Shown here: one piece after another, positions 13,172 through 49,337 of the stretch
Position numbering within the stretch: position 1 is the first letter of the stretch
Layout of the letters: every line of letters starts with the position of its first letter
DNA from: a virus
Reading direction: 5' to 3' (one strand)
Virus record (IMG/VR): IMGVR_UViG_3300009415_000002
Location: 195-64,194 of that record
DNA: 64,000 nucleotides
Notes under the pieces: model-generated
What the model was told of the DNA's origin: nothing
Seen by the model: only the letters and a program-made list of their open reading frames with translations
Databases searched by the model: none
Position numbers and translations under genes: made by a program

Positions 13172-16100
13172 TTACACACCATAGTTAGCTCTATCAATGT
13201 TGGCTTGCTTAGCATCACGAATCAATCCGTGAAATTCACAAACTGCAGTTGATAGTTCACCTAACAAGGCGTTATCAAACATATGACTATAACCACCCTC
13301 GTTAAAGAGGATAGCTAAAGGCTTAGCCACATACTGACCGCTAGAAGCATACTCAGCTTCTTCAATGAAGCCCATTTCATATGCAGCACGTTGAGAACCT
13401 TGTGAGATTCTACGAAGAGCACCGAACTTAACAGCTCCAGTTACTCCACCTTGCCACCACTTCTTAACTTCACCAAATCCTTCAAGCTTAGGCATAACAC
13501 GAGTTACGATGCGTGAGCGGATAAGTTGAGTGAAGACTTCTTCAGGAAGGTTAACACCTACAATCTCTTTGATAGCAGCTTGAAGAAGAATAGCTCCATC
13601 ACACCACTCCTCTTTAGGAGTGTTGAAACGAACATCAACTTGCTTCCAGTTGCCCATAGGAGACCAAACCATTTCAGATTCAGTGTCAGTGGATGCAGCG
13701 TTTACTAAGTTGAAGAACAACTCAGCATTTTTGGAATATCCAGATAGGCCTAGACCTTCATAGATAGCACGCCAAGCAATAAGGCTAGCATCAACAACGG
13801 TGTTGAAGCGAGCTTCATCAGGACCAACAGCACGGTCAGCAGCATCAAAGATAAGCTTAGAGCACATACCATAAGATACACCTACAGCAGACTTATAGTG
13901 CTTAGCTACACGAGCAGCGAAATCACCAAGATAAGCAGAAGTGATATAGACTTTCTCGTTAGTCTCAGGGTCTTTTAACTGAGAGTTAAGAAGACAAGCA
14001 TTACCACGAAGGGATTTCTTACCTTGCTTGTCTTTTTCAGAGATGAAGTCAATATAAGGAACGTTAGCACCATATAGATATTCATAACCAGCGATGCCCA
14101 TTTTAGAAGCATTGATTGCGATTACTTTATCAGTGGTGATTTCATAACCAGCAACAGTCTCAAGGTTAATGACAGCAATACCATCGCCATCAGAATCACC
14201 TTCATTAAGAGCATGCCATACTAGTGGGTCAACAACTACGTGAGCGATTCCGCAGATTTGCTCATCATCAGTCAACACAAGACGACCAGCGCCTAGGAAA
14301 GGCATTGGAGTGCGAGTGAAGCCAATATAATAGTTAACGAATGAATCCCAATCTTTAACGCCTAGAAGACGAACGATAGGACAGTTACGGTTAAGAATAA
14401 CTGTTGGGATTCCATCAGCACTGTGAAGCATAGGGTGGAAAGAAGTGCGGACTTTTCCATAGACTAAGTCACCAGAGCGAGTTGCTTTCTTAAGAACGTT
14501 ATTTGATTCAACTGCAGTGTTGATGATTTTGCTATAAGCACTGTTAAGCTTACCGACGATATCACCATCAAACTGGTTGACTCTATTGATGAATAAGTCA
14601 ACAATAAAGTTAACGATAGTCGCAGTCTCACGAGCAGCAGCACCACTAGCAGCACTGAAGCTACCATAGATAGCGACTACGTTAAGGTCAAGTTTGATAG
14701 ACTTAACATTAGCACTTTTGCCAATGAAGAACTTATATTCATTTTGACCAGCGAAGAAGTTAGCAATAGAAACTAGAAGCTTACGGTGTTTGATTCCGAT
14801 AGTTCCGTTAGGGAAGATAGTGCTACTAACTGCAGACATGTCTTCAGTGGTTGCATCAATAACACAAGGAGCTGTGCTAGTGTTACCAGCAAATTCATTA
14901 GCTAAGGTTAAGAAAGACTTAGTTTTATCAATAGACTCAGTGAATAGAGCATCACCAAGTTCTTTGTCTTGAATAGAGACTGCTGCAGCACTTTCAAGAG
15001 TGAAGCTGGACTTGGAAACAGACTCAAGAGCAGTGGAGATTTCCACGTCAAATACGAGCTGACCAAAGATTACGTCAATAGTCTCTTCGACTAGGACATA
15101 CTCATATCCATCAAAAGTTGTGCCTTCGCTAATAACTTTAACGCTATCAAAGAAGGAGTGGCCTTCTTCTGCATTACCAGCTTTAGCTTGCTTTTCAAAC
15201 ACAGACTTAGCCATAGTCATACGAATCTTAACATCATTAAAACGCTTGGATTCTTTCCATTCTTGAACAGCGTTATTTTCATCATAGAGATTAATAACAG
15301 AACCGTCAGCACCAACTAATTCACCGTTAGCGGTGTGAAGGTTGAACTCACCTTGGTCATTAGCGAACATCTCTAGGAGAGCGCCATGGCCTTTAGTGCA
15401 TTCGTTGTTAAGCATGATATCCCAGTGGTTGTTTTGACCAACGAACTCAACTTCATAAGGAAGAGTTGTGAACTTAGTGGCGAAACGACGAGTCTTAACC
15501 CACTGAGTTGTTTCAACAATTTCAACATTGATAGAGATTTCAATGGAGTTCTCATCATTAACAATATTACCAACAGTTCCACTAACAACACGAATATTAG
15601 CAGCATCAGAGCTATTACGAACAAGTTTGTGCTTAACACCATCAACAGAGACTTCAACAATAGTTGCTTTAGGAGCAAAGGTTTGACCTTTAGCAGCATC
15701 AATCTTCTCTTGGATTTTGTTAACAAGAGCAAGTTTGTTGTTAGCATGGTTCATGAATTTATTACCAAAGATGGAAAGAGTGAAAGACTCAGATTCTTTC
15801 TTACCAACATAATAAGTGATATAAGTTTCAGGATTGATAATACCAACACCGGAACCAAAACCTAACTTAGAGTTAGTGAATGCAACATCCATCATTTTGC
15901 CTTTAGTTTTAGCGACTTCACCAGATTGAAGAGCGAATCCAAAGTTAGATGCTACACGGTCATCAAGGTCAGCACAATCATAGTTATTAGCAGCACCACG
16001 GTTGATGAGCTTAGCAACTTTGTTTACATCATTAGGAGTGATGATGCGGTCTAGTTCACGGTTCCAACCAAGACCTGTGGCCTCAGCACCGTCATTAATA

Positions 16101-17512: not shown

Positions 17513-17597
17513 GTTATTAGTCTCCTAAGTGTTAGTGTGTTTATAGAAAATAGATAGCACTTATTTAAAGACACCGCTATCTAGATGTCTAGGTTAA

Positions 17598-18092: not shown

Positions 18093-18167
18093 AATAAATC
18101 TCCAGTGTTAATGTGTTTATGTAAATACTTATTTTACATCGTGATTTACACACACGATAGATCAGTC

Positions 18168-18293: not shown

Positions 18294-18355
18294 GGTTATT
18301 ACCTATAGATATACAAAATAAGGGTCCTAATTAGGACCCTTACGTGTTTATTTAA

Positions 18356-18562
18356 TTAATCATCTAACTTTTCCAAAATAGCTTTAAGAGCATTAAGTTG
18401 TCCTGAATATGACTTGACCATATCTTGATATAAAACTTTACGTTGGATTTTGTCGGCCTCCGAACCGTCCATAAAGTCAGTTTCCAAAAGCTTTTTAGTC
18501 TTATCAAGTTTAAGCAATTCCAAAGCAGCAATTCTAAGTTTGATTTCATTCTTATTTGACAT
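18356..18562 (-). CDS. Hypothetical coiled-coil protein, cassette 2
   Basis: 68-aa ORF. Confidence 0.65.
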   Translation of the reverse strand: MSNKNEIKLRIAALELLKLDKTKKLLETDFMDGSEADKIQRKVLYQDMVKSYSGQLNALKAILEKLDD

Positions 18563-18624
18563 AATGAGTTATACCTTATTATATATTACAAAATAAGGGC
18601 CCGAAGGCCTTATCTTGCTGAATG

Positions 18625-19062
18625 TTATACCCACTCATTACGTTCAGACCACACAGGACAATCAGAAGGCTTAACGCCAAGACCTGATGTGTCAATATGT
18701 CTGCTTTTTCTGCTGAACTTATAGATCTTACAGTTAGATGCTATAAAGCATCCACTGTCATAATCCATATCAGCAATGTCGATAACCTCGTCATAGACAT
18801 GAAGATGTTCAACCTTCACTCCATTAACAAAAGCAGGCGAGATTAGGTTGAGATTTCTCTCTTCACCATCACCACGACGTTGTAGTACACCTGTTAGTGT
18901 GACAGGCTTGTCCAACGCATTCTCAAGGACTCTGCGCTTGTGCGCATTAAGTTTAACTTCGTGTTGTCTGTAGATGGATTGAAACTGAGAAGAACGAGAA
19001 CCGTAACATAAGAATGCTGTAATTGCTTGATCGATGATTGTGTTGATTGTAGTCATGGTCAT
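18625..19062 (-). CDS. Hypothetical protein, cassette 3
   Basis: 145-aa ORF. Confidence 0.7.
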   Translation of the reverse strand: MTMTTINTIIDQAITAFLCYGSRSSQFQSIYRQHEVKLNAHKRRVLENALDKPVTLTGVLQRRGDGEERNLNLISPAFVNGVKVEHLHVYDEVIDIADMDYDSGCFIASNCKIYKFSRKSRHIDTSGLGVKPSDCPVWSERNEWV

Positions 19063-19133
19063 AGTTGTTAAAGGGAACTACCCTAAATAAATTACAAAAT
19101 AAGGGCCCTTATGGACCCCTACGTGTTTAATAT

Positions 19134-19352
19134 TTATTTAAAAGGAAAGAAGCAAATTTCATCACTGCCTTCTGAATCAAAGATATTAGTTTTACATAAT
19201 GGTTTACTAATACCGATTTCTTCACAGGCTGATTCATAATTCGCAAGTGCTGAGTTAAATATAAACCTATCCTGTGAAGCATTACTACGCTTAACAGCAA
19301 AATGCGCTTTGGCAAAAGCTCTACATATTTCATAATAGTCTAGTTTGTCCAT
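19134..19352 (-). CDS. Hypothetical protein, cassette 4
   Basis: 72-aa ORF; its upstream 32 nt are identical to those of cassette 2. Confidence 0.65.
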   Translation of the reverse strand: MDKLDYYEICRAFAKAHFAVKRSNASQDRFIFNSALANYESACEEIGISKPLCKTNIFDSEGSDEICFFPFK

Positions 19353-19419
19353 AAGGTATACCTTATTATATATTACAAAATAAGGGCCCCGTGGCCCTTA
19401 CAAAGATTAATATAAAGAT

Positions 19420-19722
19420 CTATCTAGATCCTGCACCAACACTACTAATAGGAGCATTACACTTAAAAGTGCGCCCTCCTCTACGTCGCCCTAAAGCACC
19501 ATAGTTAACAGTGATAATGTCTCCATCACGTTGCATGTCAATATCCTTCATTTTCACAAAGGAACCACCACACTCATACTTAACTTTAAGATCAGGACCA
19601 TTCCACTCAGGAACAATCTCAACACCTACAAGGTTAGGATGAGCAAAGGAAGCAAACCAACAAGTGGATGCAACAGCAATAGCAGATACGGACACGGAAG
19701 CAATTGATTTAAAGTTACGCAT
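19420..19722 (-). CDS. Putative exported protein, cassette 5
   Basis: N-terminal basic + hydrophobic signal-like sequence ending ASFA. Confidence 0.6.
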   Translation of the reverse strand: MRNFKSIASVSVSAIAVASTCWFASFAHPNLVGVEIVPEWNGPDLKVKYECGGSFVKMKDIDMQRDGDIITVNYGALGRRRGGRTFKCNAPISSVGAGSR

Positions 19723-19802
19723 AGTTTTACCTAATGTGTTTACAAAATAAGGGCCCGAAGGCCCTTGTTAGGTTTAAGATGATAGGGATTAGGGATTAGG
19801 GA

Positions 19803-20072
19803 TTACTTATTAACAATATGATTTGTTACATAGCACATTATTACTGAGGACCATAACTGAGATGCAACTGCATCATCTCCTTCCCAAACCATTTCTACTC
19901 CTTTACTTTTGTTAACTAACTTGATCTGACCTTTATAAGTTTCCACATTATTAGTGAACTTAGCAAAGGAATAACCTTCATATGTGAAGCTCATTAATAT
20001 ATCATTTTCATACTGAAGAGTCCATACTTGAGGTTGAGTTTTGATTGAACGAAGAACTTGTGAAACTTTCAT
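19803..20072 (-). CDS. Hypothetical protein, cassette 6
   Basis: 89-aa ORF. Confidence 0.65.
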   Translation of the reverse strand: MKVSQVLRSIKTQPQVWTLQYENDILMSFTYEGYSFAKFTNNVETYKGQIKLVNKSKGVEMVWEGDDAVASQLWSSVIMCYVTNHIVNK

Positions 20073-20141
20073 GTGATTTACCTTTGTGTGTTTATATTAC
20101 AAAATAAGGGCCCTGTTAAGACCCCTTACATAAGTTATTAA

Positions 20142-20402
20142 TTAAAGTTTTGATAAGTCTATAATACTAAATGGCAGATATATGACCATACCTGTGCTTG
20201 CTTTTCTAAACTCTTTAGCCTCACTAATTGGGAAGTTGTGGGAATAAATCCATATACCCATTTCGTCTCTTTCTGCAAGGAAGATATATTGTTCATACAA
20301 TCCCTGCGTCGCCGAGAGGCGAGAGACCCAATTTTGCTTTTTAATAAGAATATTTTCTGCTTCAAACTTAAAGTCTTCCAGTCTTTCATTAAATAAATCC
20401 AT
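20142..20402 (-). CDS. Hypothetical protein, cassette 7
   Basis: 86-aa ORF. Confidence 0.65.
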   Translation of the reverse strand: MDLFNERLEDFKFEAENILIKKQNWVSRLSATQGLYEQYIFLAERDEMGIWIYSHNFPISEAKEFRKASTGMVIYLPFSIIDLSKL

Positions 20403-20456
20403 AACTTGTTTTAACTATTATATACTACAAAATAAGGGTCCGAAGACCCTTAATTA

Positions 20457-20990
20457 TTAAGTTAATGTTTGAGCATCTATAGTTAGATAACCTGCAAAGT
20501 CTTTTTTACTAACAGCTTTATCTATCTTCTTTAACATTTTATAGATAGCTTTAGCTAGTTCAGCACTAGATAGTTCATCTAATACTTCTTCATACTCTAC
20601 ATATACTACACAAGTAATATCTACTACTTGTAAGATGGCCTCTTTTAATCTTTTATGCTTATCAACTTTACTAAGCATTTCATTAGGATTAACTGTCCAG
20701 TCTATGCCTATCGCTATGTTAGCCTCATCATTATACAGAATGTCATCTATAGTTAGAAAATGATCTAACCTACTTACTGTGGTTTTATTACTATATCTAC
20801 GAGCACTTCTATACCTATCAAAGTCAATACTTTTTATAGTATCACAAGCACTATTTACTCTATCTTTCATAGAGTTTATATCTCTTTCTTGAAGAAGAGA
20901 TAAGTTAAATGTTTTATATTTCTTTATACTGTTCATAGCTTTCTTAGCATTAATTACTATTCCTTCTAAGTAATCTCCATTGTATCCCAT
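20457..20990 (-). CDS. Hypothetical protein, paralog of 21051..21581, possible PD-(D/E)xK-like fold, cassette 8
   Basis: Shared D..L.(I/V)DD...IDWT...GYLT motifs. Confidence 0.6.
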   Translation of the reverse strand: MGYNGDYLEGIVINAKKAMNSIKKYKTFNLSLLQERDINSMKDRVNSACDTIKSIDFDRYRSARRYSNKTTVSRLDHFLTIDDILYNDEANIAIGIDWTVNPNEMLSKVDKHKRLKEAILQVVDITCVVYVEYEEVLDELSSAELAKAIYKMLKKIDKAVSKKDFAGYLTIDAQTLT

Positions 20991-21050
20991 TGTAGTTTCC
21001 CCTATTTTGTAATTAAATACAAAATAAGGGCCCGAAAGCCCTTATATAAT

Positions 21051-21581
21051 TTAAACTAGTTTTTCCATATTAAGAGTAAGATAGCCTGCATATTTTTGCT
21101 TACTAACCATATCTTCTACTTTTAAAAGAATTTCAAATAAAGCAGCCATAGCAAAGCGAGCTTTATCTATTTTCCTTTCTAATAAAACATGATTAGTAAT
21201 ACATACTGACAAACATACATCTACCTGTAGTTTGTCCATCACAGACTTACGTGATGTAAATCTATCTCTTTTTTGTTCTAACTTCATAGGATCATCAGTC
21301 CAGTCTATGGCAGCAAATAAAAGATTTCCATCTTCTAATTCACATTCCATAATATCGTCAACACCTAGTATGTAGTCCATACGTGTTTTAATACTATTAC
21401 CATCTTTCTTAGCATATTTATTAGCAGTACAATAATGAACACTATCATACTGTTTCATTTCTTCAATAGCTAATTTAATCTCATCTTCAAATATAGAAGC
21501 ATCTACTAATAAGCAGTTGTTTTCTAATAAAGAGCAAGTTGTTTGCATTAGGTTTTCTGTATCGTACAATGACATAATCAA
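21051..21581 (-). CDS. Hypothetical protein, paralog of 20457..20990, possible PD-(D/E)xK-like fold, cassette 9
   Basis: MDYILGVDD...AAIDWT...YAGYLT. Confidence 0.6.
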   Translation of the reverse strand: MIMSLYDTENLMQTTCSLLENNCLLVDASIFEDEIKLAIEEMKQYDSVHYCTANKYAKKDGNSIKTRMDYILGVDDIMECELEDGNLLFAAIDWTDDPMKLEQKRDRFTSRKSVMDKLQVDVCLSVCITNHVLLERKIDKARFAMAALFEILLKVEDMVSKQKYAGYLTLNMEKLV

Positions 21582-21633
21582 TTACCAGTATATTACAAAA
21601 TAAGGGCCCGAAGACCCCTACTTTGTAATGATT

Positions 21634-21680
21634 AATTGGCTAGAGGAGTTGCACCCCCATTAAACCGTCATGTGCCAATT
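21634..21680 (-). ncRNA. tRNA-like minihelix (7-bp stem stacked on a T-arm)
   Basis: AATTGGC ... GGGGG-TGCAACT-CCTCT-A-GCCAATT. Confidence 0.45.
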
Positions 21681-21682
21681 TA

Positions 21683-22201
21683 TTAAATTGAAAGGTAAGT
21701 AGCATATAATTCTACTTCCCATCTAGCTTCTTTAACTACAGACTCAGAATAATAAGAGTTGATGTATTTAACAAAATAATCATCAACTGCATTATCAAAC
21801 AATTCTTTAGAGAAATCACTAGTGAACTCATACTTATCTCCTACTTGAACACGGTCAAAAGAAGATAGATAAGAACGGACTTCATTTATTACTTCAAAGC
21901 ATAAAACACCATATCCTGTTAAAGAACGGTGTATAGCTTCTACTTCTTCTGCAGATACTTTAGAAGAACCTTCTTGTGTATCAACTTCAGATAAATAAAC
22001 TAATCCAGTTAAGATTACTTCTTCATTTACAGGATTAAAATCTAATCTTGTATCAGAAGTAAGTTTAACTTTATATGTTTTTGTATAAGTCTCATCCTCT
22101 ACAATAGTGTAGTGGCGAGAAGCAGATACAGTGCAATACAAGTTGTTAGCTTGTAGTTCACCCTCAGAAAGAACTTCTTTGGAGGAATGATATAAAAACA
22201 T
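21683..22201 (-). CDS. Hypothetical protein, cassette 10 (likely start MFLYH at 22201)
   Basis: The track start (22225) lies within the repeat element. Confidence 0.65.
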   Translation of the reverse strand: MFLYHSSKEVLSEGELQANNLYCTVSASRHYTIVEDETYTKTYKVKLTSDTRLDFNPVNEEVILTGLVYLSEVDTQEGSSKVSAEEVEAIHRSLTGYGVLCFEVINEVRSYLSSFDRVQVGDKYEFTSDFSKELFDNAVDDYFVKYINSYYSESVVKEARWEVELYATYLSI

Positions 22202-22252
22202 AATTTTACCTAGTTTGATGTACAAAATAAGGGCCCGATGGCCCCTACATTG

Positions 22253-22399
22253 TTATTCATCGTCATCATCAAGCAATGCTAGCTGATCTAGCATTACCTT
22301 CTGAGACTGAAACTGTTTATCCCATTGCTCCTGTGTGCTACCCTCTGGAAGAGAGCATTGTTCACCGGTTAGTGGGTTAGTTTTAGTTTCGTATTTCAT
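22253..22399 (-). CDS. 48-aa acidic peptide, cassette 11
   Basis: Hand translation MKYETKTNPLTGEQCSLPEG...LLDDDDE. Confidence 0.6.
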   Translation of the reverse strand: MKYETKTNPLTGEQCSLPEGSTQEQWDKQFQSQKVMLDQLALLDDDDE

Positions 22400-22459
22400 G
22401 ATTACACCTATATTATTGATCATAATAAGGGTCCGAAGACCCCTATTATGTTTAAATGT

Positions 22460-22786
22460 CTATTCTCCTTTAAGATTAAAGAAGTAAGACATAACCTCAA
22501 CGTGTAGCTCAGTTAAGTTCACGACACCAGGAGTAAAGTCTTTAACTTCACTCTGGATACGCTCTAAAGAATAACCGTTCTTGATAAGATTTTGTACTAT
22601 GAGTACATCATCTTCAATCCCGTCGTTATCCCACTCGTCATCTGTTAGGTCAAGACCTAAGATGTCGTGTAGAGCATCGTGACAGATCATCTTTCCTATG
22701 AGCCATGATGGTCCTTCCTCACGGAGAGTTAGGTCATTACGGTCACAGAAAGCTGCTGCACGTTGGTTTAATTTAGCGAAAATCAT
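22460..22786 (-). CDS. Acidic hypothetical protein, cassette 12
   Basis: 108 aa, Asp/Glu-rich. Confidence 0.7.
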   Translation of the reverse strand: MIFAKLNQRAAAFCDRNDLTLREEGPSWLIGKMICHDALHDILGLDLTDDEWDNDGIEDDVLIVQNLIKNGYSLERIQSEVKDFTPGVVNLTELHVEVMSYFFNLKGE

Positions 22787-22839
22787 ATCATTAAAAGGTA
22801 TAGGACAAAATAAGGGCCCGAAGGCCCAAACAATGTTAT

Positions 22840-23076
22840 TTATACAGTTTCAAAATTAACTAATAACTCACTTAAGTTACAGCTGTGTTGGATGCCTAGA
22901 TCATAAAGACCTGTTAAAGCTTCTCTTACAGTTGCATACTTTTTGTCAAGTTGGATCTTAGCAGATCTTTCTTCATAAGCACCAAGACCAGAAGTCTTAA
23001 TAGTGTTTAGTTCAATAGCATAACGGTTGTTTAGAAGTCTGTTGTCGATGTTGATAGAAGCAGTTAAGTTAGTCAT
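22840..23076 (-). CDS. Hypothetical protein, cassette 13
   Basis: 78-aa ORF. Confidence 0.65.
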   Translation of the reverse strand: MTNLTASINIDNRLLNNRYAIELNTIKTSGLGAYEERSAKIQLDKKYATVREALTGLYDLGIQHSCNLSELLVNFETV

Positions 23077-23142
23077 AATATACCTTTGTGTTTGTTAGTG
23101 TTTAATGAACAAAATAAGGGCCCGAAGACCCTTACATATTTA

Positions 23143-23745: not shown

Positions 23746-23830
23746 AATTTTACCTTTTGTGTTTAATGTTTATTAGTGTTTTTTTGTAAAGTACTTATTT
23801 AAGGACCCCACTTTACAGAGGTCCAGTTAA

Positions 23831-29625: not shown

Positions 29626-29626
29626 T

Positions 29627-41200: not shown

Positions 41201-44200
41201 GATAAATAGTATCTTTAACTTCTTTAAGATGCTTACTATTACTATTAGTTTCTACTGCTTTACTTAAAGATGAGAAGCTATTGTATAAACCTGAACCCAT
41301 TTCTATATAGACTCTTTCAACAGCACTGCCGGCATACTTGCGACTGCTTCTCATTGACCTCATATTCTGAGTTGTTTCTTTTAGAAGTGCAGTACGCTCT
41401 TCATAAACTTCTAATCCTAACTCCTGTTGTTTTGATACAGCCATAGCAGCAGAACCAAATGGCATTAAGTTGCTACCAATACCTGTACTTGTAAAACCTT
41501 GATATTTAACTTTACCAGCGTTGGCCTCTTGCATACGAGCACCAGCTACTGCTTTCTCAATTTCTACTTCCATAGTAGCTGCTGCCTCCATTACAGATTG
41601 TAAAGCTTTAGTCTCATCTGTAGTAAGAACAATACTTATACCTGTTTGAGCTCCTGCTCTTACTTTTTCAAAGGCTACGTTAGCTATATTACCTGGAGTA
41701 AAGATTGCAGTTAAAGCTTTATAGTTTTGTACTACGGGATCTACAAAGTCAGCATGCTGTGCACCTAAGTTTCTCATTATCTGAGCACTAGGAATAATAG
41801 TAGACATGCCTTTAGATTTATCTATATGTGCAACTACCTGACCATACTGTTGATCAAAAGAAATACCAGGTAATGTAATATACATACTTTCATTACTCAT
41901 ATTAGCTAAGTATTCTTTTGTATTAGTTTTACCTATTACTTTACTAGCATTTTGTTGATGAGAATCATTCATAGCCATAAGTCCTCTTTCAACATCATCT
42001 AGTTGTTGCATAGCAAACTCACGACCACCTTTTTCAATGATTCTTTGTACATGTCTTTCTCTATCAGTAGAAGTTAAGTACCCATACTTAGCCTTTACAA
42101 AGTTTTCAACCTTAGTACGACCATCATCTGTAATAGAGTTAGCTTTCCACTCATAAGCACCCTCAGTTATATCTTTGTTAATATTTGTGTACATATCAAC
42201 AAAATCCTGGGTATAAACCCCTGTTGTTCCACCTTGGTAAAAACCTAAGAACTTTCTCTTCTCAAAAGAACTAAATAAGTAATTAGATTCTGCTTCTACT
42301 AAGTTGCGGGCTTTTCTTGAACCAAATTGATTAGCGTTTTGAGTTCCATACATAGTTAAACCAGACTTCATATTAGAAGTCATAGCAGCTAAGCTAGCAA
42401 CAGTATGTTTAATCTTACCTAACTGACCTGTCTCTTTATATTGTTTAATATCACCTAGATAAGGAGTTATTAAATGCTGCCCTTCATGTCTAGCTACAGA
42501 TTGAGTACCAGTTGGATCCTTACTATAAGAGAATGTAATATCACTAAAGATAGAAACAGCAGTTATCTGAGTAGAGAGACCTTCAATCATCTGCATTAGC
42601 ATTTCTCTATTTTCATCATCTATATCAGTAGGAGCTCCTAATACATTTAACATTACAGCTCTGTAATCTGGGTTAGATATGTCTATATCTCCAGGTACTC
42701 TCATACTAGAACCACTAGCTGATAATTGATGCATAAAGTCAACAGCAGTAGTAATGATAGTCGCCTGTCTATCCATTTGACTATCAAAGTTAATAGATCC
42801 ATAAGCTGCTGCATTTTTAGCAGTAGGGTCTACCAAGCTTCTAACTGCATGTAGTAATTCATTAGATTGAGAACCATCACCTGCTAATACATTAGACAGC
42901 ATAGTACTAGTAATACCTCTAAGACCACCTACTGATATATCAGAGAATGCTGACTTAGAAGTTAAGCTTTCAAATAACAAATCAGAACTAATTTCAGATC
43001 TTGATCTACCGTACTTATCTTTAGCCATTGCTTTGTCAATACTACCATCCATACCTATTTGTACAGCAAGAGCAGCAGTAAGCTTTTGATAATGTTTTCC
43101 ATACTCACCTTTAGCCAAGCCTTCTATTAAAGCTTGTTGTAATTTACGGGCTTCTGCAGGTTCAGAGTTATAACCAGATATATCTTTTCCTTTTTTTCTA
43201 TCTTCAAAATAACCTTTCATATTCAAAGCTTCACCAGAAGCACTTGTAGTTATAAAACTACCTCCGAACTGAATAAGTAAAGCTCCTGCTACCTTTTTAG
43301 CTGCAGCAATATCCGCTTCACCTTTAGCTCCAAATAACTCATCTAACATAAAGTGAGATTTAGTTCCATCTTCACCAGTTCTTAGTGAGCGCATTATAGT
43401 AGCACCGTGACTCCAGAAGAAAGACTTGAAGTTATTAGAGTTATATAGTCCATGTACTGTAGATGATAAAGGAGTATAACCATAAGTACCGTCTTGGAGT
43501 TTAGTATAATCACTAGCCTCGTTTACAGTAGCTCCTAGTACACCGTCTTTTCTCATATCTAAGTAAGCTTTTAAAGAACCACCAACTTCATTAGCATACA
43601 TTTGCTGCTCTAAGTGCTGGAAAGTATTCATTTCTACTTCTCGTCTTTCACCATCTATGTGAGTCATAAATTTATTACGACCTGCAAAGTTAGCTACACC
43701 TTTAATTAATGCACCACTATCTGTACCTTCAACTCTTCGACCACTTCCTGGCATAACAGAACGTAATCTGTGGAACATTCCTACATATTCGTTGTTATCA
43801 AAATTACCACCTCTATGATAAGCATCCATTAAGTAGTCAATACTTTGTTCTCCACTACGTCTGTAAGTAGCCATTTCTGAAGTACCGAGAGTAGGAGAAC
43901 CAACTGGACTAAATGAGGTATTGTCAACAACATTTTTTATAGTAGACATATTACCTTTATGGTCAGCAACACCTACTATCTTCCAGTCTCCATCAATCTT
44001 TCTCTTTAGAACAGTAGAATTAGTATTAGGATCTTGAACAATTATGTCTCCTCTCTTTTGGAGAACCTCATAACCACCTTCACCAATCATTGAGCCTTTT
44101 ATACTCTGTTGTTGAGTTTCTATATAACCTTCTCTCATTCCTCTTGCCAAGACTCCTTCACCAGGTTCTAACTGCCCAGGTCTTTCTAACACTAAGTCAG

Positions 44201-47200
44201 GGTCATCTATATGCCATTCATTAGCAAGACGTCTATTGTAAGCACCTTTACTTGTGTATACAGAGCCGTATAAAGGGTTAGCAAGGAAAGTATCAGTATA
44301 CGTACCTCCAAGCTGTATAAGAGCCATAGAGTAGCGCATATGATCACTACCAGCTAACATCTTACCTAAGTTTAGATCTAAACTAGCTTTAAGAACTTCT
44401 ACTCTTAACAATTCCTCCTTCATTTCATCAGTAACAGAGTCACCAACAGTATCTTCTATATCTTTTCTAGTACGCATTAAGAAATTCATCTGTTGTTGAT
44501 TCATAACAGATTTAGTATTACCAGAGAACACAGCTCCTAAAGAAGAATGTGAATCAGCAAAAGCGTTTCTAGAGACAGTACCTATATTAGTAACTTGTCT
44601 AGCTAATCTTATAACTTCTATATGATCATCACCTAATATTTTTCTTTTAGCCTCAAGCTCTTTCATAAGAGCTTCTCCACGAGCTTGAAGACCCATTTTT
44701 CCATCACTACCTTTAAGTAGCTTTTCTCTATTTCTCTTAAGGTAATTATCAGTTAGCTGAGACATACTGTCACCAGTAGAATACTCACCATCTAAACTTC
44801 TTTCTGATACAGCTTGTGCAGCTACCCCAAATTGATAAAGAGGTCTAGCACCTAAAGCATTTTTTATACGCTGAGGCAACTGTGATACTTTCTTAGCGTC
44901 TCCAGTGTAAAACTGTAAAGCAGTATCTTGACCTTGGAATGTATTTTTTAATCCCTCTCTATAATGTTGAATTGCAATTTCAGCAGCATCTTTGTTAGTG
45001 ATATTACCTTGGGAATCTCTTCTAAAGAACATTTCCATTTGCTCGTCCTTAAGAAGCATTTGGCCTTCAGCATCTCTTGCAAACTCCCCATTACCATCTT
45101 GAGAGAAATAAGCATTGGCATGTACCATATTACCTATACCAACAGAAGACAGTACACGAAGATTATCTGCTGTACCCATTTGTCTAGCTTCTTGAGCAAA
45201 GAATACAGAGTCTAATGCATCATCATACTTATTCATAGAAGTAGACTTACTAGCGATACTTCTATATAAGACTGCATTAATATCTGTAGTAGGTCTATAA
45301 GCTAAAGGAGTAATACGAGCAAACATTCCTACATTCTTTATAGAACTAATAACTTGCCCATTTTCATCTCGTGGTTGTTCTCCAAATAAATACTGAACAC
45401 TATCTTTATCATTTCTATTACCAGCAAACCCCATCATTACTGTACGGTAGACAGCCTGTTGTCCACCATAAGTTCTTCCCTCTCTACCCTGTAAGAAAGA
45501 ATCAAATAGACTAGCTTGAAACTGTTTAAACCTATTAACTTCTAATGCTTCTCCAGCATTTCCTCTGACGCTATTCATCATGTCTGAAGCTAAAGAAGGA
45601 GATAGTAAAGCTAAGGTTTCTAAATGCTTAGCAACAGAACCATCCATGATTCTTTGTCTTTCTTCATAATCTCCACTAGCAGCCACTCTTCTTAAAGCAC
45701 CTACTAAACCTTCCTGACCTTCTTGACTACCAGAGGCAGCTAGACCAAAGAATGCTTTATGTAATCCTAAAGTAGTATCTATCTCTGAACTACCCAGTTT
45801 CTTCTGACCAAATAGAGACACACTAATATCACCTATTAACTTTTCTGTCTCTAAGTTAAAGGCTTCTTTACCATCTTCTGTTCTACTTACACTGATATTA
45901 GATATGAAGTTTTGCATAGAGCTTACTTTAGCACCAGTTTCAGTGTTCATAGTATCACCATAACCAGTAAGCATCTTGGACATATAACTAGTAGCTATAT
46001 TTCTTCTATCTGTTTGACTAGTAATTGATGCGTACTTAGCTTGTTGAGATTCTACTCCAAAACGACTATCTGCTTCACCTAATATAGTTGCAAATAGTTG
46101 AGGAACTATATCTAGAGCACTCATGTAAGCACTTTGTCCAGACTGAAGATCTACTCTTCCATCTTCCAACCCTGACTTAAAATCATCATCATAATTATTT
46201 CTACCTAGAACACTAATAGCACTTCCACTATTATTAGCAAATATACCATTACCTACTATTTGACTTTTATCTACAAAGTAAACAAATGCACCTGCATCAC
46301 CATCATCAGTACGAGCGTTAAATAGGTTACTACCTCTATTAGGTCCATTAAGTACAGACAACTCAAATTGTAGTTTAGGTAATCTTGAAGTAGATGCTAA
46401 ATATCCTTTTGCTCCTAATGCCTGAGTTAGATCTAAACTTACATTAATAGAAGTAAGACCACTACCACTTGTGTCGCCGTATCTATCAACAATCTTAAAG
46501 GCCGATTCAGACACACCTAAAGTCTTGCGCATTTGCTCTAGTCTATTTTTAAGAATAACTAGTCCACCTGTATTAATATTACGCTGCCATAGAGGTTCAG
46601 TTCTAATAGCATTGTAGTTAGGATTAGTAATCTCGTTATTACCTAGTTGATTCCAAGTAGTGCTTAAATGCTGCATTGCTAGATTTAATTCATACCTTTC
46701 CTCTTCTTGGTCTAAACTAAAATCATTATTAAGAGGAGTAAACTCTGGATCGTTATCCATATAATAAGCATCATATCTTTGAGCCACTCTAGCTTGATGA
46801 GCTGATGCTCTACTTAGACTAGTAGATACATTTCTGTCTCCAAGCATCAATCCTATTTCAGTATTAGTTCTATCACCATCTCCAGGAATATACATAGGCG
46901 TACCCTGTTTTGATGTACCACCTTCTATACCCATAGAATATTGACCCATGTTAGAAGACCCCATGTAGTAAGATACTAATTTAGGATCTACGCCCTTATT
47001 GTTATATTCCATTAATCCAAAGCTCTTAACGTGCTGTCTAGGAGCTTTAGCCATAGTAATATTATCTGAAGCCATACCAATAATTTGCTTCAAATCAGAC
47101 TCACTAAATCCAGCTTCTTTTGTGAAACCTTGTACTCTAAGTAAAGTCATCATCTTACCCATTTGAGTAGAGTAAGAACTATCACTTGTAGAAGTAGACG

Positions 47201-49337
47201 GGTTAAACAAAGAGTACCCAGCCATTAGACCTAGATTTCTACCATACTTATTATAGTTAGATTTAAGTCTTTCACTCCCACTCTTTTCTATCTTTTGAAC
47301 AAGAGGATTAATAATTTGTTCTCTATAGTTTTTAGCATCAACAGTAACAGATGCTTTTCCGGTTATTAATAAGTCAAATAATTTATCTTGAGCTTGATAA
47401 TATCTTTGAGTTTGGAAGTTTTCTTTTCCGTAAGCACTAGAAACTTCTTTACCCATTTCTCCAGCTAAAGCAATGTTTTTAGAAGTATCACCTAACTGAA
47501 GCATAAAAGCCTGATCAAGCACCATAAACATATGAGTACTTGTACCAGTGGTAGTTTCTTTTGCGTACCCACCTCTAGTATTACCACCAACTACATCAAA
47601 TCTTTTCTCATGAGCATAGTTCAGAGTGTTCTTTAAGTGCTGCCAAATATCTCCAGCGAATCCTACCTGCATACCTCTAGATTGAGAAAGAATAGGAGTA
47701 GCGGTACTACCTCCTTTTCTACCTACATCATTTCGGCTATAAGTTAATTCCTCGTTAGAGATACTTTCTATTTGTCTATATAGTAAAGACTGAGTTACAT
47801 CTCCAGTTTTAAGAGCTACATCTCTTTGTTCAGTCCAAGTATCTCCTCTACCTTGTCTAGTATTAAGACGAGCAGCATTTAAACTTCTATCATCTTTATA
47901 TTTATTAACAACAAACCGCATAGTTTCAAAGTTGCTACCAGCTTGGTTAACACTATTACCTACAGGTCCTGTTAAGTTTTGAGTACCTATCCCTGCTACA
48001 TTATCTGTTAAGTAAAGTTTGGGGTGGAACTTCTTATCTCTAAACTGTATATTTAATTTAAAGTAATCCTTAATATCAACTCCAGTAATACCCATTTGTT
48101 GTAAAGTACCTTGAAGTTGTTCTTGTATAGCCTGTAGCTTTAAAGCTTCAATTAAGTTAGGACCTAGTATATTGTAATTAGTTGAACCTACACCGTACCT
48201 TCCTTCTTCAGTGGAAGTACCATCTAAGTCTCTTTGACGAGGATAAGCTAAAACAAAATCTACTTCAAATGCTTTGTTATTACCTGATGCTACGTTTTCT
48301 AATACTCTACGTTGAATTTTATCTATTAAAGCAGCACTGATAGCCTCGTTCTGAAACTGGAAGGATTGTATACTAATTTTATTTTCTGCTGTATTCACTA
48401 AATCCACAAAATTAGCAATACCAGCTTTATCTACATAACCACCTTGAGTAGCTGCACTACTTCTATTACCTAAATTATTATTAATGAGTTCAAGAGCGCT
48501 AACTAAATCTTTTGGATCAGTTTTTTGTTGAAGAGCACTAGCATGTATATCTGCAGAGTTAGCTAGTCTATTACGTTCACCTACTGTACCATTAACTAAA
48601 GTATTTCTTATAGTTCTACGAGCACTTGATAAACCACTACCTGTCATAGATAATTGATTTATCATTGACTCTCCATGGAATCTTTGAAATTCAACATCTA
48701 ATCTATCTACAATATTTTGACTATCGTATAAAGATCTATTCACATTATCTTTAAGAACTCTAGCTGCAGCAGTAGCAGCCATGTCATCTGGATTAGTGTT
48801 AGCCAATTGAGTTGATAAAGCAGAAGTACCATCTTCTAAGTTTTCATAGGGTGCAAATACATTATCGTATAATGCTCTTGAACCAAAAAAATCTTCATCA
48901 TCTCCTCCACCAAAACCACCTCCACTTAATATTTCACCAGTAAATCTATTAAAGGCATTACTAGTACCAAATCTAAAAGGAGATGAATTTACTTCAGCAA
49001 ACTTACTAGCGTTCATTACAGTTTCATCTGCAATAGTTGCTCCTAGTCTACTATTAAAAGCTCTATTGTGTCTTGCTTGCTGAACTGTACGATTATCACT
49101 ATCAGAATCTATACCTAATTCATTATTCCAATCTCTTTCAAGTTCTCTAACAGAGTTTTCCATTTGAGGAAGGAACTCATCTCTATCAGCAAATGCACGG
49201 CCATCTATGCCTTCATTTAACACATTAATCATTGTGTGAAATCTGACAGCATTACCTAAAGCAGTACGTTGATACTGATTAGTTCCCAAGGTACTTTTAA
49301 GGGAATCTATTCTATGTTGTGATCCTTCTCTTGACAT
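35211..49337 (-). CDS. Giant multidomain protein: PLD (two HKD) domain + two-barrel RNA polymerase + helical C-terminus; putative virion RNAP / tape-measure or ejection protein
   Basis: HPKLYLTD..GTQN (aa ~438), HVK..GSSN (aa ~769); MALIQLGGTYTDTFLANP (~1670), GRRVEG..IKGV (~1865), GLYNSNNFKS (~1960), GKVKYQG (~2607), FRSP (~3317), GGGDWDGD (~3388); hydrophobic segments near C-terminus. Confidence 0.8.
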   Translation of the reverse strand: MSREGSQHRIDSLKSTLGTNQYQRTALGNAVRFHTMINVLNEGIDGRAFADRDEFLPQMENSVRELERDWNNELGIDSDSDNRTVQQARHNRAFNSRLGATIADETVMNASKFAEVNSSPFRFGTSNAFNRFTGEILSGGGFGGGDDEDFFGSRALYDNVFAPYENLEDGTSALSTQLANTNPDDMAATAAARVLKDNVNRSLYDSQNIVDRLDVEFQRFHGESMINQLSMTGSGLSSARRTIRNTLVNGTVGERNRLANSADIHASALQQKTDPKDLVSALELINNNLGNRSSAATQGGYVDKAGIANFVDLVNTAENKISIQSFQFQNEAISAALIDKIQRRVLENVASGNNKAFEVDFVLAYPRQRDLDGTSTEEGRYGVGSTNYNILGPNLIEALKLQAIQEQLQGTLQQMGITGVDIKDYFKLNIQFRDKKFHPKLYLTDNVAGIGTQNLTGPVGNSVNQAGSNFETMRFVVNKYKDDRSLNAARLNTRQGRGDTWTEQRDVALKTGDVTQSLLYRQIESISNEELTYSRNDVGRKGGSTATPILSQSRGMQVGFAGDIWQHLKNTLNYAHEKRFDVVGGNTRGGYAKETTTGTSTHMFMVLDQAFMLQLGDTSKNIALAGEMGKEVSSAYGKENFQTQRYYQAQDKLFDLLITGKASVTVDAKNYREQIINPLVQKIEKSGSERLKSNYNKYGRNLGLMAGYSLFNPSTSTSDSSYSTQMGKMMTLLRVQGFTKEAGFSESDLKQIIGMASDNITMAKAPRQHVKSFGLMEYNNKGVDPKLVSYYMGSSNMGQYSMGIEGGTSKQGTPMYIPGDGDRTNTEIGLMLGDRNVSTSLSRASAHQARVAQRYDAYYMDNDPEFTPLNNDFSLDQEEERYELNLAMQHLSTTWNQLGNNEITNPNYNAIRTEPLWQRNINTGGLVILKNRLEQMRKTLGVSESAFKIVDRYGDTSGSGLTSINVSLDLTQALGAKGYLASTSRLPKLQFELSVLNGPNRGSNLFNARTDDGDAGAFVYFVDKSQIVGNGIFANNSGSAISVLGRNNYDDDFKSGLEDGRVDLQSGQSAYMSALDIVPQLFATILGEADSRFGVESQQAKYASITSQTDRRNIATSYMSKMLTGYGDTMNTETGAKVSSMQNFISNISVSRTEDGKEAFNLETEKLIGDISVSLFGQKKLGSSEIDTTLGLHKAFFGLAASGSQEGQEGLVGALRRVAASGDYEERQRIMDGSVAKHLETLALLSPSLASDMMNSVRGNAGEALEVNRFKQFQASLFDSFLQGREGRTYGGQQAVYRTVMMGFAGNRNDKDSVQYLFGEQPRDENGQVISSIKNVGMFARITPLAYRPTTDINAVLYRSIASKSTSMNKYDDALDSVFFAQEARQMGTADNLRVLSSVGIGNMVHANAYFSQDGNGEFARDAEGQMLLKDEQMEMFFRRDSQGNITNKDAAEIAIQHYREGLKNTFQGQDTALQFYTGDAKKVSQLPQRIKNALGARPLYQFGVAAQAVSERSLDGEYSTGDSMSQLTDNYLKRNREKLLKGSDGKMGLQARGEALMKELEAKRKILGDDHIEVIRLARQVTNIGTVSRNAFADSHSSLGAVFSGNTKSVMNQQQMNFLMRTRKDIEDTVGDSVTDEMKEELLRVEVLKASLDLNLGKMLAGSDHMRYSMALIQLGGTYTDTFLANPLYGSVYTSKGAYNRRLANEWHIDDPDLVLERPGQLEPGEGVLARGMREGYIETQQQSIKGSMIGEGGYEVLQKRGDIIVQDPNTNSTVLKRKIDGDWKIVGVADHKGNMSTIKNVVDNTSFSPVGSPTLGTSEMATYRRSGEQSIDYLMDAYHRGGNFDNNEYVGMFHRLRSVMPGSGRRVEGTDSGALIKGVANFAGRNKFMTHIDGERREVEMNTFQHLEQQMYANEVGGSLKAYLDMRKDGVLGATVNEASDYTKLQDGTYGYTPLSSTVHGLYNSNNFKSFFWSHGATIMRSLRTGEDGTKSHFMLDELFGAKGEADIAAAKKVAGALLIQFGGSFITTSASGEALNMKGYFEDRKKGKDISGYNSEPAEARKLQQALIEGLAKGEYGKHYQKLTAALAVQIGMDGSIDKAMAKDKYGRSRSEISSDLLFESLTSKSAFSDISVGGLRGITSTMLSNVLAGDGSQSNELLHAVRSLVDPTAKNAAAYGSINFDSQMDRQATIITTAVDFMHQLSASGSSMRVPGDIDISNPDYRAVMLNVLGAPTDIDDENREMLMQMIEGLSTQITAVSIFSDITFSYSKDPTGTQSVARHEGQHLITPYLGDIKQYKETGQLGKIKHTVASLAAMTSNMKSGLTMYGTQNANQFGSRKARNLVEAESNYLFSSFEKRKFLGFYQGGTTGVYTQDFVDMYTNINKDITEGAYEWKANSITDDGRTKVENFVKAKYGYLTSTDRERHVQRIIEKGGREFAMQQLDDVERGLMAMNDSHQQNASKVIGKTNTKEYLANMSNESMYITLPGISFDQQYGQVVAHIDKSKGMSTIIPSAQIMRNLGAQHADFVDPVVQNYKALTAIFTPGNIANVAFEKVRAGAQTGISIVLTTDETKALQSVMEAAATMEVEIEKAVAGARMQEANAGKVKYQGFTSTGIGSNLMPFGSAAMAVSKQQELGLEVYEERTALLKETTQNMRSMRSSRKYAGSAVERVYIEMGSGLYNSFSSLSKAVETNSNSKHLKEVKDTIYQLHDLRKLGYVAGASGMSKDVQRDNVFTTVTTLQRAYDQLESLVSLPEMAANKEDIRNMQKYLVDSSAELRQYADAELDISKNTPDFWARNDVKSNLTLSALVERGAITEDQESQLLNKVKGKTRRVQSVVHDGERTSTIREVEAQIHKLNYRVEAFDVFEYQEEQTRREFFYEEDDTTKATRKPGETAKIKSIITDDIVEDTTKAYIATVGREREINRTVIKTNTISEATEYSDTYKVVTREVAMEVDGSQMAQTVYDNRRTRDKTEFLNGEVIRDDDLTDVRKIRQFYRRQASALREGIDAAHRDEFKQIKRQSLNITERVVAYESAKGLSQDDRRKGYDTLKSSILKLRNEAAERINYFDKEGIKNRLDPANAFIYHATVMNYDAMLARIELSSINPARQHLSSEQVGYLNRKVARFKEVGMIMNDGTIFEGLGKTSTQLAEHTLFTGKTKAAGTSDYEDPTKSVVNAIKEIGEAFNKSGSSGSRDAVQKKFAEKQINETIQMYKNRMEDMKKFSMTRESQSKLKNKDGTTQVKTDSEQESRITAAHSEYETRTKTIIQRLESLKLDLNEKHMNIGDYEDLFSYVRMEMEDLDRSNLELAEVFRSPTPGGTDPRLHTYRLMEGVHALNRVAQLSGEIQVGQTGIETTKMTSDISRGQTGSWMASLGIVTFGGGDWDGDPYTTVMNRASDYQKYMSEARLEVDKQTALSNSYSKQIAEGASNEDEGKTLQQEYAKSRRKKVQAEAKFKYAQQKLQEQSAAGSRLLTERMRKQVAGYLGMDERFFVEQGEQLRDAITGEERFDDQDKAITGFGGRTMGADELNALMGQGTDIIEGLYGQAGKMMAVNTAMDALLGYQGTDPAEGIEFLHKLKLDPNTNTAKGETAQPNVALVREQISKRLEILEAEVSSGSEKQGQVDFLRALQAEGEDSVTLKAYAGTLSNFANDQDNMLRYVDMLKNVASDDEKRKAGQRAFLGQWIGGEIFNKTQEADTLSKFTSQAVGMDMTEPVFDIVLKTLGKAGGEILGKTYNTIIGSTFQDAPTISSGRAMMDTDSELHQAVRKHYFQDEDSFDISRLSEDRRNEVVDYANKTGVTQAQAAKEIYAEQFNQYQETTRQAVSNAEGTQSFMKNIHQLLRDSIKLKTDGDMMSSLQENSKVYNEKSSQIAAFESGDIADLSKKDRAEYEDLKRQRDSVIDGMASQLGPGPGLKSLMDMDYLINQSTNKGMNLMDYESRFLGGKEVGNSYEFRQINAKLAARDPNYKSIGSRDDISADSHSLMAVARYQTARNVASMVTSYHMDNSNKQSSEIMTSFAASQKLKLASQNKQIHKVSKVALVNRFENGQPMSEDHEMLEYLNKKYLSNLNIEGDKFDIHLDQKSALAQHLKLDLDSAYDDKGVLTSEYQKELTDVARKQGVSVETYLLQFDSVYETTRQQIDPLFGKDGERMENFTLTELMRKNVANAQETGNMPGEEGSHNIRDMAGSELMTTMAQLASQQKLGAQGMGIFSAMYRGVLSELVNANKEVLSVDGKDFTTADKVEQDYILKKVVYKNLVGTEDKGQLWSRATSDETKDWKGFNARMIDEADERFVYQEADESLTVVKDSSEYKGSGKLIRVENDILDAFVEMNERSLTGQQAASAEMMGREALYEYAFNNDEEVDKILRDFLPGDEQITMEGKKMVKDNIQYQAARRNQQVIRQQKMAREMYMDMSDVTKKGSVLNKVGDAGLRAMSKNKVSTGLDVLVPILLTGVGGMISEGNVDDNQLQALGGATVTAFQYARAGSIDDPNPNAYKRKVSGAKALTGVFKFKNALARHGDDNIGMAVAEMAVQEVVSTSFNAVATPWINQKIERNVLGMKAHPSLSAMGMEKYAAGKQLAGNIGASIISAVSSTLISGVFMKTAARMQNGGVKNILDSFAPVANLSASVAERISRQRNQQAAYEEIAAETDGTNSEISDYWVMTDSTYNPDNFAHLADLQEAQDVEPSMDGTIYTDVLA

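Follow-up and report, generated by a model that had tools for sequence, protein, structure and literature searches.

Does a single phage carry two RNA polymerases (RNAPs) of its own, and could these drive its transcription as a cascade? The question is raised by a 64-kb stretch of viral DNA (the window; part of a 65,435-bp contig of the IMG/VR record IMGVR_UViG_3300009415_000002 from a marine metagenome, estimated to be 39% complete, with about 34% G+C). An earlier note, made from the letters alone, had pointed to two proteins with a DxDGD motif and suggested the logic of phage P23-45, whose dual polymerases are a real precedent (PMC10770324). The two motifs were found in intact minus-strand open reading frames (ORFs), DSDGD in a protein of 1446 aa and DWDGD in one of 4708 aa, referred to here as the giant protein. 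The gene context is also as described, with the smaller gene following an array of small ORFs and the giant gene divergent from a portal, head and sheath module. On balance, and with modest confidence, we favour two sequence-unrelated single-chain two-barrel RNAPs acting in a P23-45-like cascade as the best explanation of the whole.

A DxDGD motif alone is weak evidence for a polymerase, because about one occurrence is expected by chance; six-frame translation of the window gave one further DxDGD, at position 58908 inside an ORF of the head module. Conservation and fold have to carry the argument. Coordinates of all features are collected in Table 1.

The 1446-aa protein is a predicted single-chain RNA polymerase

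Relatives of the 1446-aa protein are few (28 among 5.8 billion proteins) and none of them is annotated. The N-terminal 440 aa are poorly conserved, and the conserved core comprises aa 440–1446 (nt 13175–16195). The AlphaFold2 model of the conserved part reached a predicted local distance difference test (pLDDT) value of 88.6 and a predicted template modelling (pTM) score of 0.87. When this model was compared to the PDB by Foldseek, the best 50 matches were all second-largest RNAP subunits, from Pol I, II and III, archaea, bacteria and plastids. VIA-align placed model residues 1–396 onto residues ~450–1125 of Rpb2 (Z 9.7, 306 residues aligned).

An exhaustive structure search against 48,161 PDB representatives, of which the best 50 matches were listed, ranked maize RDR2 at the top (Z 11.5, 404 residues aligned, model 1–1000). 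QDE-1 (Z 10.8, 447 residues), P23-45 gp96 (Z 10.7 and 10.6) and P74-26 gp62, a homologue of the non-virion RNAP of P23-45 (Z 9.8, 402 residues), were also found. The largest subunits of Pol I, III and IV and those of vaccinia virus, African swine fever virus (ASFV), AR9, phiKZ and M. tuberculosis match model residues 563–985, and isolated double-psi beta-barrel domains superpose on residues 576–678, DSDGD included (Z 10.9, root-mean-square deviation 2.0). From language-model features of the ESM Atlas for aa 990–1446, 74 of 100 matches fell into clusters of the RNA-dependent RNA polymerase (RdRP) family PF05183.

The order of modules in the chain is a beta-like barrel, a beta-prime-like barrel with DSDGD, and a bridge-helix region, as in QDE-1, RDR2 and P23-45 gp64. 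In the second-barrel module K673, R675, K680, T682 and T683 are invariant (K234, R236, K241, T243 and T244 of alignment A1). Invariant stretches of the family include FVKTRRFATKFTT, within which the basic residues K, R and K are invariant, as well as NNECTKG, RTPMPF and GDSDGDG. The last was retained in 20 of 20 full-length homologues, with Ser replaced by Thr in one and by Cys in another. RTPMPF and GDSDGDG resemble the NRAPTLH strand and the NADFDGD loop of E. coli beta-prime. By modelled fold and motifs together, the 1446-aa protein is almost certainly a single-chain two-barrel RNAP.

Sequence-based searches gave no such answer for either of the two proteins. Pfam returned no match above threshold, PHROGs only families of unknown function, and phmmer and profile searches against PDB sequences nothing or coiled-coil noise.

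In 8 of the 28 homologues of the smaller polymerase (P0019–P0026) the ORF ends exactly at EG|DSDGDG. In one of the contigs concerned (L005:13066-14378, a 120,991-bp JGI contig) the gap contains a LAGLIDADG ORF at 13804–14373, and the frame resumes at 14378 with DGIALINL. By its sequence the split resembles an intron insertion, with a homing endonuclease, in the catalytic motif; no group I intron was detected at the site by Rfam.

The giant protein has a probable RNA polymerase core

A first search with the giant protein gave 28 relatives of 3000–6500 aa. With a profile of aa 3290–3960, a set of 1.84 billion proteins yielded 75 clusters at 50% identity; lengths are 3000–5400 aa in nearly all of them, and GDxDGD was retained in nearly all as well. 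Four blocks that are invariant or nearly so follow each other as RSPxPGGTDPR, GGGDxDGDxYT, LGKAGGExLGKTYNTxxG and QLLRDSIKLK, with R3319, G3388, D3389, D3391, G3392, D3393, K3740, N3743, R3849 and D3850 as invariant residues. The family thus keeps the canonical order of an R-x-P strand block, DxDGD and a bridge-helix-like block; the third block resembles the RNAP bridge helix, ...GARKGLADTALKTANSGY.

For modelling we used a family alignment of 51 sequences and a relative with a short connector (P0055:2060-3259), which aligns to aa 2242–3871 of the window's protein and has all invariant blocks in common with it. In the model the conserved Arg, R753, stands at the end of a strand, and GDFDGD is flanked by a short helix and a strand, an arrangement as in the smaller enzyme. 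A shape search of the ESM Atlas returned RNAP families in its first three rows: a bacterial RdRP (PF05183) cluster with 396 residues aligned, a viral Rpb1_2/Rpb1_5 cluster with 438 residues aligned, and an Rpb1_2 cluster with a template modelling (TM) score of 0.54 by hit. As a calibration, the model of the smaller enzyme retrieved the same viral Rpb1_2/Rpb1_5 cluster (TM 0.34) and the same 329-aa Rpb1_2 cluster, and it also matched another RdRP cluster and ~900-aa viral clusters of the same kind with similar TM. The modelled core of the giant protein is thus probably an RNAP, and the two proteins are, or very probably are, members of sequence-unrelated families of the single-chain two-barrel type, the giant one as a probable member.

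The predicted architecture of the giant protein comprises, in this order, a PLD-like domain in the N-terminal third, the RNAP-like core in the second half, with a hypervariable connector between the two putative barrels, and two hydrophobic segments whose positions are conserved in the homologues. The PLD-like family PF13091 was detected in one homologue (P0050, E 4.4e-8) and more weakly in two others (P0044, P0055); it was not detected in the window's own protein. The homologue from Microcystis phage Ma-LMM01, gp080, is named a PLD phosphodiesterase domain protein in UniProt. Across relatives the connector varies in length from 300 to more than 2500 aa. In one relative (P0039, aa ~3640–4250) it contains two ADP-ribosyltransferase domains, PF01129 and PF03496 (in the window the connector corresponds to 40338–41390), which suggests that the giant protein also delivers host-modifying enzymes.

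Both genes are usually found together

The earlier note had proposed to look for co-occurrence of both genes in related phage genomes. Both were present in 9 of 9 Ma-LMM01-type records. In Ma-LMM01 itself gp064 (with GDADGD) corresponds to the smaller polymerase and gp080 (with RSPPPG, GDFDGD, GKTYNT and LRDAIK) to the giant protein. A complete 252-kb IMG/VR genome has both genes, and so apparently has the 121-kb JGI contig, in which the smaller gene was read directly and the presence of the giant gene was inferred. Of the 12 IMG/VR records with the giant core, 8 also have the smaller gene, and most of the others are fragments of 26–47% completeness. Pairing of the two genes is therefore common, not obligatory. 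Both genes are intact and conserved.

Two classes of repeated elements precede the early genes

Both classes of repeated cis elements that had been noticed in the window are present far above chance. Class 1 elements stand 15–40 nt 5′ of the next start codon. Class 2 elements consist of a hairpin of variable sequence, directly followed by T[AT]AAATAAGT[AG][CT]T, then by a CA-rich leader, and finally by a Shine-Dalgarno sequence. Within the window such elements are located 5′ of the genes starting at 25124, 23745, 18092, 17512 (the polymerase gene) and 13061. The conserved AGGAGACTACTGACATG start region that follows the first of these recurs at 24773–24793, and a variant with three mismatches precedes the polymerase gene (17508–17528).

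Class 2 was compared between the window and four related contigs found via polymerase homologues (47–71% identity), in which the motif dominates the small-gene arrays. [AT]AAATAAG was counted 23 times on the coding strand versus 2 on the opposite strand in L005, and 14 versus 3 times in L010, another contig of this set. A hairpin directly precedes 19 of the 23 and 13 of the 14 copies, respectively, compared to 12–19% of random positions. All 35 hairpin-linked copies have different stems, while the sequence of the motif is conserved. Each of the four Watson-Crick pair types was seen at four of the five inner stem positions, and 8 of 35 copies have a mismatch at the second pair counted from the loop. 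Overall 167 of 175 stem cells are paired, compared to a mean of 84.5 when arms are exchanged between copies, a figure that is partly circular because the copies were chosen by the hairpin criterion. The motif mostly lies 42–62 nt 5′ of the start codon and stands about 50 nt before the polymerase gene in 5 of 5 contigs. It is absent from Ma-LMM01 and from the 252-kb genome; Ma-LMM01 uses another hairpin-linked motif, TAGTGGTnCTATAWT, before gp064 and gp066.

The spacers of the early cassettes conserve only the hairpin plus TAAATAAGT or TTATTTTGTA and have no conserved −35/−10 pair. As judged from sequence, the hairpin plus TAAATAAGT qualifies as a strong phage-specific promoter candidate. Specificity in sequence and strand, covariation with the phage lineage and no likeness to sigma70 promoters are the features that a promoter read by a polymerase of the phage would be expected to have. 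The hairpin may be part of the promoter, or may be a terminator of the preceding cassette. The latter is favoured, because TAAATAAGG stands without a hairpin at the head of the early block, at 25498.

It had also been stated that host sigma70 promoters occur only in front of tRNA and homing-endonuclease genes. Two such sites hold up well, a perfect one before tRNA-Pro and an extended −10 site before the GIY-YIG gene; the third, at 4200–4246, is weak (9/12). The exclusivity is another matter. Sigma70-like matches were no commoner than in shuffled sequences (80 versus 66.5 and 64 versus 78.6), and since weaker matches occur at the shuffled frequency, a lack of host promoters elsewhere is not demonstrable from sequence.

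Expression of the homologues in Ma-LMM01

Published RNA-seq data for Ma-LMM01 give the timing of both homologues. In Table S3 of that study, the rows for gp060–gp063 show log2 values of 5.4–7.9 at 1 h, and the earliest class is gp054–gp063 (Morimoto et al. 2018, PMC5780444). The smaller polymerase homologue gp064 had a log2 value of 1.6 at 1 h and 7.5 at 3 h, and for gp080 the value was 0 (no reads) at 1 h and 7.3 at 3 h (PMC5780444). Both genes belong to the middle class. That gp080 is silent at 1 h agrees with a protein that would have to come in with the particle if it is to act early. Host transcription was almost unchanged during infection, and how the timing of three classes is achieved with one kind of promoter was raised there as an open question (PMC5780444).

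Between gp064 of Ma-LMM01 and the early block gp063–gp054 downstream of it there are 6.7 copies of a 42-bp tandem repeat (L003:13272-13552, corresponding to Ma-LMM01 43271–43551), a candidate region for the control of early transcription in this phage. By BLAST the Ma-LMM01 early genes are without similarity to the early block of the window.

A proposed cascade and its alternatives

The following model would unite these data. It appears fairly likely that the giant protein is packaged and is ejected with the DNA, and that it initiates transcription at the hairpin plus TAAATAAGT, both for the small-gene cassettes and for the gene of the smaller polymerase. The argument for delivery is that the giant gene abuts the portal and head module, that the C-terminal hydrophobic segments are conserved, and that homologues carry ADP-ribosyltransferase or PLD domains, typical of injected effectors. 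More tentatively, the smaller enzyme, made after infection, might then take over the later genes, with the host sigma70 RNAP serving the tRNA and homing-endonuclease genes. The P23-45-like logic proposed at the outset thus gains from two two-barrel RNAPs (one of them probable) of unrelated families that co-occur across the clade, and from a class 2 element that is kept in relatives, always before the smaller polymerase gene and early cassettes. The timing in Ma-LMM01, where the smaller polymerase is not among the earliest genes, speaks against a strict copy of P23-45.

A number of points weigh against the cascade. No virion proteome for this phage group was found in the literature searched. 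One 89%-complete record has the giant gene without the smaller one, and a partial Microcoleus phage genome has the giant gene only. Further points bear on the alternatives below.

Instead of promoters, the hairpin elements could be sites of transcription termination or RNA processing by which the cassettes are insulated, with the true promoters elsewhere. Class 1 matches the pattern of an intrinsic terminator (20 found versus 7.7 expected), the virion RNAP of P23-45 uses a conserved terminator motif, and the hairpin-free TAAATAAGG suggests that hairpin and motif are separable. However, TAAATAAGT is not a U-tract, it is regularly spaced from the start codon that follows, it occurs in a strictly strand-specific manner, and it keeps its sequence while that of the stems changes. 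We regard this alternative as rather doubtful. It is also compatible with the promoter reading, if the hairpin terminates the cassette before and the motif starts the cassette after it.

Alternatively, both proteins could be RNAPs with the host sigma70 enzyme reading the earliest genes, so that the phage enzymes would act on middle and late genes and packaging would be unnecessary. The authors of the Ma-LMM01 study indeed attribute all three temporal classes to sigma70-like promoters and host SigA, having found sigma70-like boxes before all classes (PMC5780444). That gp064 is a middle-class gene speaks against an exact copy of P23-45 in that phage and, taken together with the same class for gp080, favours an early phase run by the host enzyme; functional-looking sigma70 promoters are present in the window as well. 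On the other hand, BPROM-type boxes are equally frequent in shuffles of this AT-rich DNA, and no −35/−10 pair is shared by the early cassettes. A protein of 3500–5400 aa with membrane segments, effector domains and a portal neighbour is hard to explain as a soluble late polymerase, and the untouched host transcription fits a phage that does not use the host enzyme. This makes an early phase of host transcription unlikely.

Least probable is that only the 1446-aa protein is a polymerase and that the giant one is an ejection or internal-virion protein with a PLD-like enzymatic part, in which the DxDGD block, a motif that may arise by chance, has a different role. The model rests on a relative of ~20–22% identity and is of moderate confidence (pLDDT 74.9, pTM 0.59). 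Foldseek searches of this model against PDB, AFDB clusters and BFVD gave noise or self-matches only, giant-family profile searches against PDB chains found nothing, and hhalign detected no relation of the family to P23-45 gp96 or to the family of the smaller enzyme. The putative second barrel lacks an invariant Lys. Sequence features from the Atlas gave weak tape-measure matches for the core (score 0.75) and no matches for the barrel alone. A wide VIA search returned mostly helical bundles, with ASFV Rpb1 at rank 46 as the sole RNAP among the matches listed. The giant protein is graded no higher than a probable polymerase because neither Foldseek nor sequence profiles gave a link. That ASFV Rpb1 match nevertheless aligns 243 residues spanning model 295–1189 (Z 7.2), DxDGD, the upstream R-x-P block and the bridge-helix-like block are invariant in canonical order across 75 clusters, and of the three nearest Atlas shapes, all RNAP families, two are also matched by the bona fide enzyme. 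A tape-measure fusion was rejected, as the giant gene is divergent from the portal gene and located upstream of it, not downstream of the sheath gene; the tape-measure position lies further downstream, because the sheath gene comes after the head genes.

Genome context

The right third of the window is a plus-strand virion module whose gene order is syntenic with gp075–gp090 of Ma-LMM01. The presence of portal, major head protein and tail sheath genes identifies the phage as a myovirus, and the synteny as one distantly related to the genus Fukuivirus. The left 25 kb form a minus-strand block of small ORFs, two tRNA genes, four HNH genes and the 1446-aa gene, upstream of which about 18 small ORFs on the same strand are arrayed. 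The four HNH paralogues are packed into 6.4 kb around the tRNA genes.

The early block encodes a RIO/APH-like protein kinase. Ma-LMM01 gp062, which is among the earliest genes, is annotated as a kinase, and BLAST found no similarity between the two. The CTP synthase has its best matches in Firmicutes (45–49% identity in the genome collection searched), which do not point to a host; together with the periplasmic-binding-protein-like gene it is likely an auxiliary metabolic gene.

An inverted repeat, TATAGTCTATTAG ... AATAGTAGACTATA, is located in the 105-bp spacer (49337–49443) that separates the giant gene from the divergent first virion gene on the plus strand. Structural genes lack a Shine-Dalgarno sequence and early genes have one (window 49900–59300; also 26777–28387). 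TATAATAAA is located 8–25 nt 5′ of the ATG of several structural genes (4 sites versus 0.29 expected) and might act as a late promoter or be a sign of short leaders.

Table 1. Coordinates of the features of the 64-kb window (position 1 is its first letter).
Feature	Position	Strand	Remarks
1446-aa single-chain two-barrel RNAP gene, candidate non-virion RNAP	13172..17512	−	
Beta/Rpb2-like module with second barrel	15008..16195 (aa 440–835)	−	Foldseek, VIA-align, invariant columns
Catalytic double-psi beta-barrel	14162..14470 (aa 1015–1117)	−	RTPMPF ~aa 1067–1072; DSDGD aa 1106–1110 = nt 14183–14197
4708-aa giant multi-domain protein gene, candidate virion-delivered RNAP	35211..49337	−	homologue of Ma-LMM01 gp080
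PLD-like region, two HxK motifs	46938..48350 (aa ~330–800)	−	H438/K440 and H769/K771 nearly invariant
RNAP-like core of giant protein (probable)	37725..42614 (aa 2242–3871)	−	
Conserved block, putative second barrel	aa ~2490–2650	−	giant protein core
Hypervariable connector	aa ~2650–3000	−	between two putative barrels
RSPTPGG	aa 3319	−	giant protein core
GDWDGD	aa 3388–3393 = nt 39159–39176	−	giant protein core; DWDGD aa 3389–3393
Bridge-helix-like LGKAGGEILGKTYNT	aa 3730–3744	−	giant protein core
LLRDSIKLK block	aa 3847–3855	−	giant protein core
Two hydrophobic, membrane-span-like segments	35508..35996 (aa 4448–4468, 4592–4610)	−	only such segments in giant protein
Class 1 elements, ~14 copies	18312..23144	−	GGGNCC-NNNN-GGNCCC, then TTATTTTGTA; one per spacer between small ORFs
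Class 2 at polymerase gene	17556..17593	−	hairpin AGACATC(8 nt)GGTGTCT, then TTAAATAAGTGCT; 55 nt to ATG
Class 2, hairpin + AAAATAAGTATC	13101..13138	−	before 363-aa gene next after polymerase gene
Class 2, hairpin + AAAATAAGTATT	18124..18161	−	before gene 17598–18092
Class 2, hairpin + TAAATAAGTACT	23790..23827	−	before gene 23143–23745
Class 2, hairpin + TAAATAAGAGTA	25169..25206	−	then CA-rich leader and conserved AGGAGACTACTGACATG start region
Sigma70 promoter, perfect TTGACA-17-TATAAT (12/12)	7131–7103	−	25 nt before tRNA-Pro; also precedes tRNA-Glu
Extended −10 sigma70-like promoter TTGGAA-17-TATAAT with TG	25526–25554	+	before GIY-YIG gene
Sigma70-like site	4200–4246		weak, 9/12
HNH homing-endonuclease genes, 4 paralogues	1902–2540, 3511–4188, 5529–6161, 7660–8253	−	PHROG 374, E down to 4e-61
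tRNA-Glu	6671–6746	−	
tRNA-Pro	7005–7078	−	
RIO/APH-like protein kinase gene, early block	24232–24777	−	PF01163, E 1.4e-11
GIY-YIG endonuclease gene with helix-turn-helix domain	25582–26451	+	head of early block
CTP synthase gene, full-length	26777–28387	−	PF06418, E 6e-115
Periplasmic-binding-protein-like gene	28567–29625	+	
Virion module	50279..64000	+	divergent from giant gene; right third of window; syntenic with Ma-LMM01 gp083–gp091
Portal gene	50279–51868	+	virion module
Major head protein gene	56715–58013	+	virion module
Tail sheath gene	62942–64000, runs off window	+	virion module

Significance

This phage group has been published as lacking an RNAP and as wholly dependent on host SigA (PMC5780444; PMC9927357), with MaMV-DH01 stated to lack any RNA polymerase (PMC9927357); here one firm and one probable polymerase gene are described. 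In the literature searched, no paper was found that links the group to two-barrel polymerases. Two phage polymerases would be a direct and testable answer to how timing is achieved without a change in host transcription. The data also define two unannotated families, giant polymerase-like proteins of 3000–5400 aa in 75 clusters at 50% identity, and polymerases of ~1300–1800 aa that are sometimes split by a homing-endonuclease insertion at the catalytic motif. The hairpin-linked motif is a concrete promoter candidate for biochemistry, and the dual single-chain polymerase strategy would extend from one Thermus siphovirus to widespread marine and freshwater myoviruses.

A bolder version, for which the odds seem poor, is that a two-barrel virion polymerase within a giant ejected effector recognises the hairpin plus TAAATAAGT elements as promoters by their structure. 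If true, this would be promoter logic like that of N4, evolved independently in another polymerase superfamily; Ma-LMM01-type phages, the bloom-controlling Microcystis phages included, would be transcriptionally independent of the host, and the unchanged host transcription during infection would be explained.

Comparison with known systems

Coliphage N4 gp50 is a giant packaged polymerase (~3500 aa) that is ejected with the DNA and reads early promoters in hairpin form. It is a T7-like single-subunit enzyme and not of the two-barrel type, so that its likeness to the giant protein is in logic only. Bacillus SPbeta YonO is a DNA-dependent RNAP of the single-chain two-barrel type, likewise encoded by a phage. 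Among the Atlas neighbours of both window proteins are ~1000-aa bacterial and phage clusters of the RdRP family PF05183, but YonO has no detectable sequence similarity to either protein. In QDE-1 and plant RDR2 both barrels lie in one chain, beta-like before beta-prime-like, as in the 1446-aa enzyme, and these two eukaryotic silencing enzymes are its best whole-length structural matches. Gp66 (PDB 6VR4) of phi14:2, a crAss-like phage, has both barrels in a single chain and is, like the giant protein in our proposal, a large protein packaged into virions. It was not among the matches listed for the smaller enzyme, and the giant family is twice its size and has extra domains.

The closest parallel is P23-45, which likewise has two single-chain two-barrel RNAPs in one phage, the virion RNAP gp96 and the non-virion RNAP gp64 (Chaban et al. 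2024, PMC10770324). In both cases one RNAP (here the probable one) lies within a giant virion-type protein of ~5000 aa with membrane segments, the other is free and of the crab-claw type, and small early genes are arrayed with repeated phage-specific motifs. The model of the smaller enzyme aligns to both gp96 and the gp64 homologue gp62. The differences are equally clear. There is no sequence similarity, and P23-45 is a siphovirus whereas the window belongs to a myovirus. The virion RNAP of P23-45 is N-terminal and fused to the tape measure, whereas here the RNAP-like core is found in the second half and follows a PLD-like domain, with the giant gene upstream of the portal gene. The candidate promoters are hairpin-linked here, and the smaller enzyme of Ma-LMM01 does not belong to the earliest class. 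What is found is a variation on the dual single-chain RNAP strategy of P23-45; the phage lineage is another, the sequences are unrelated, and the giant protein is built differently.

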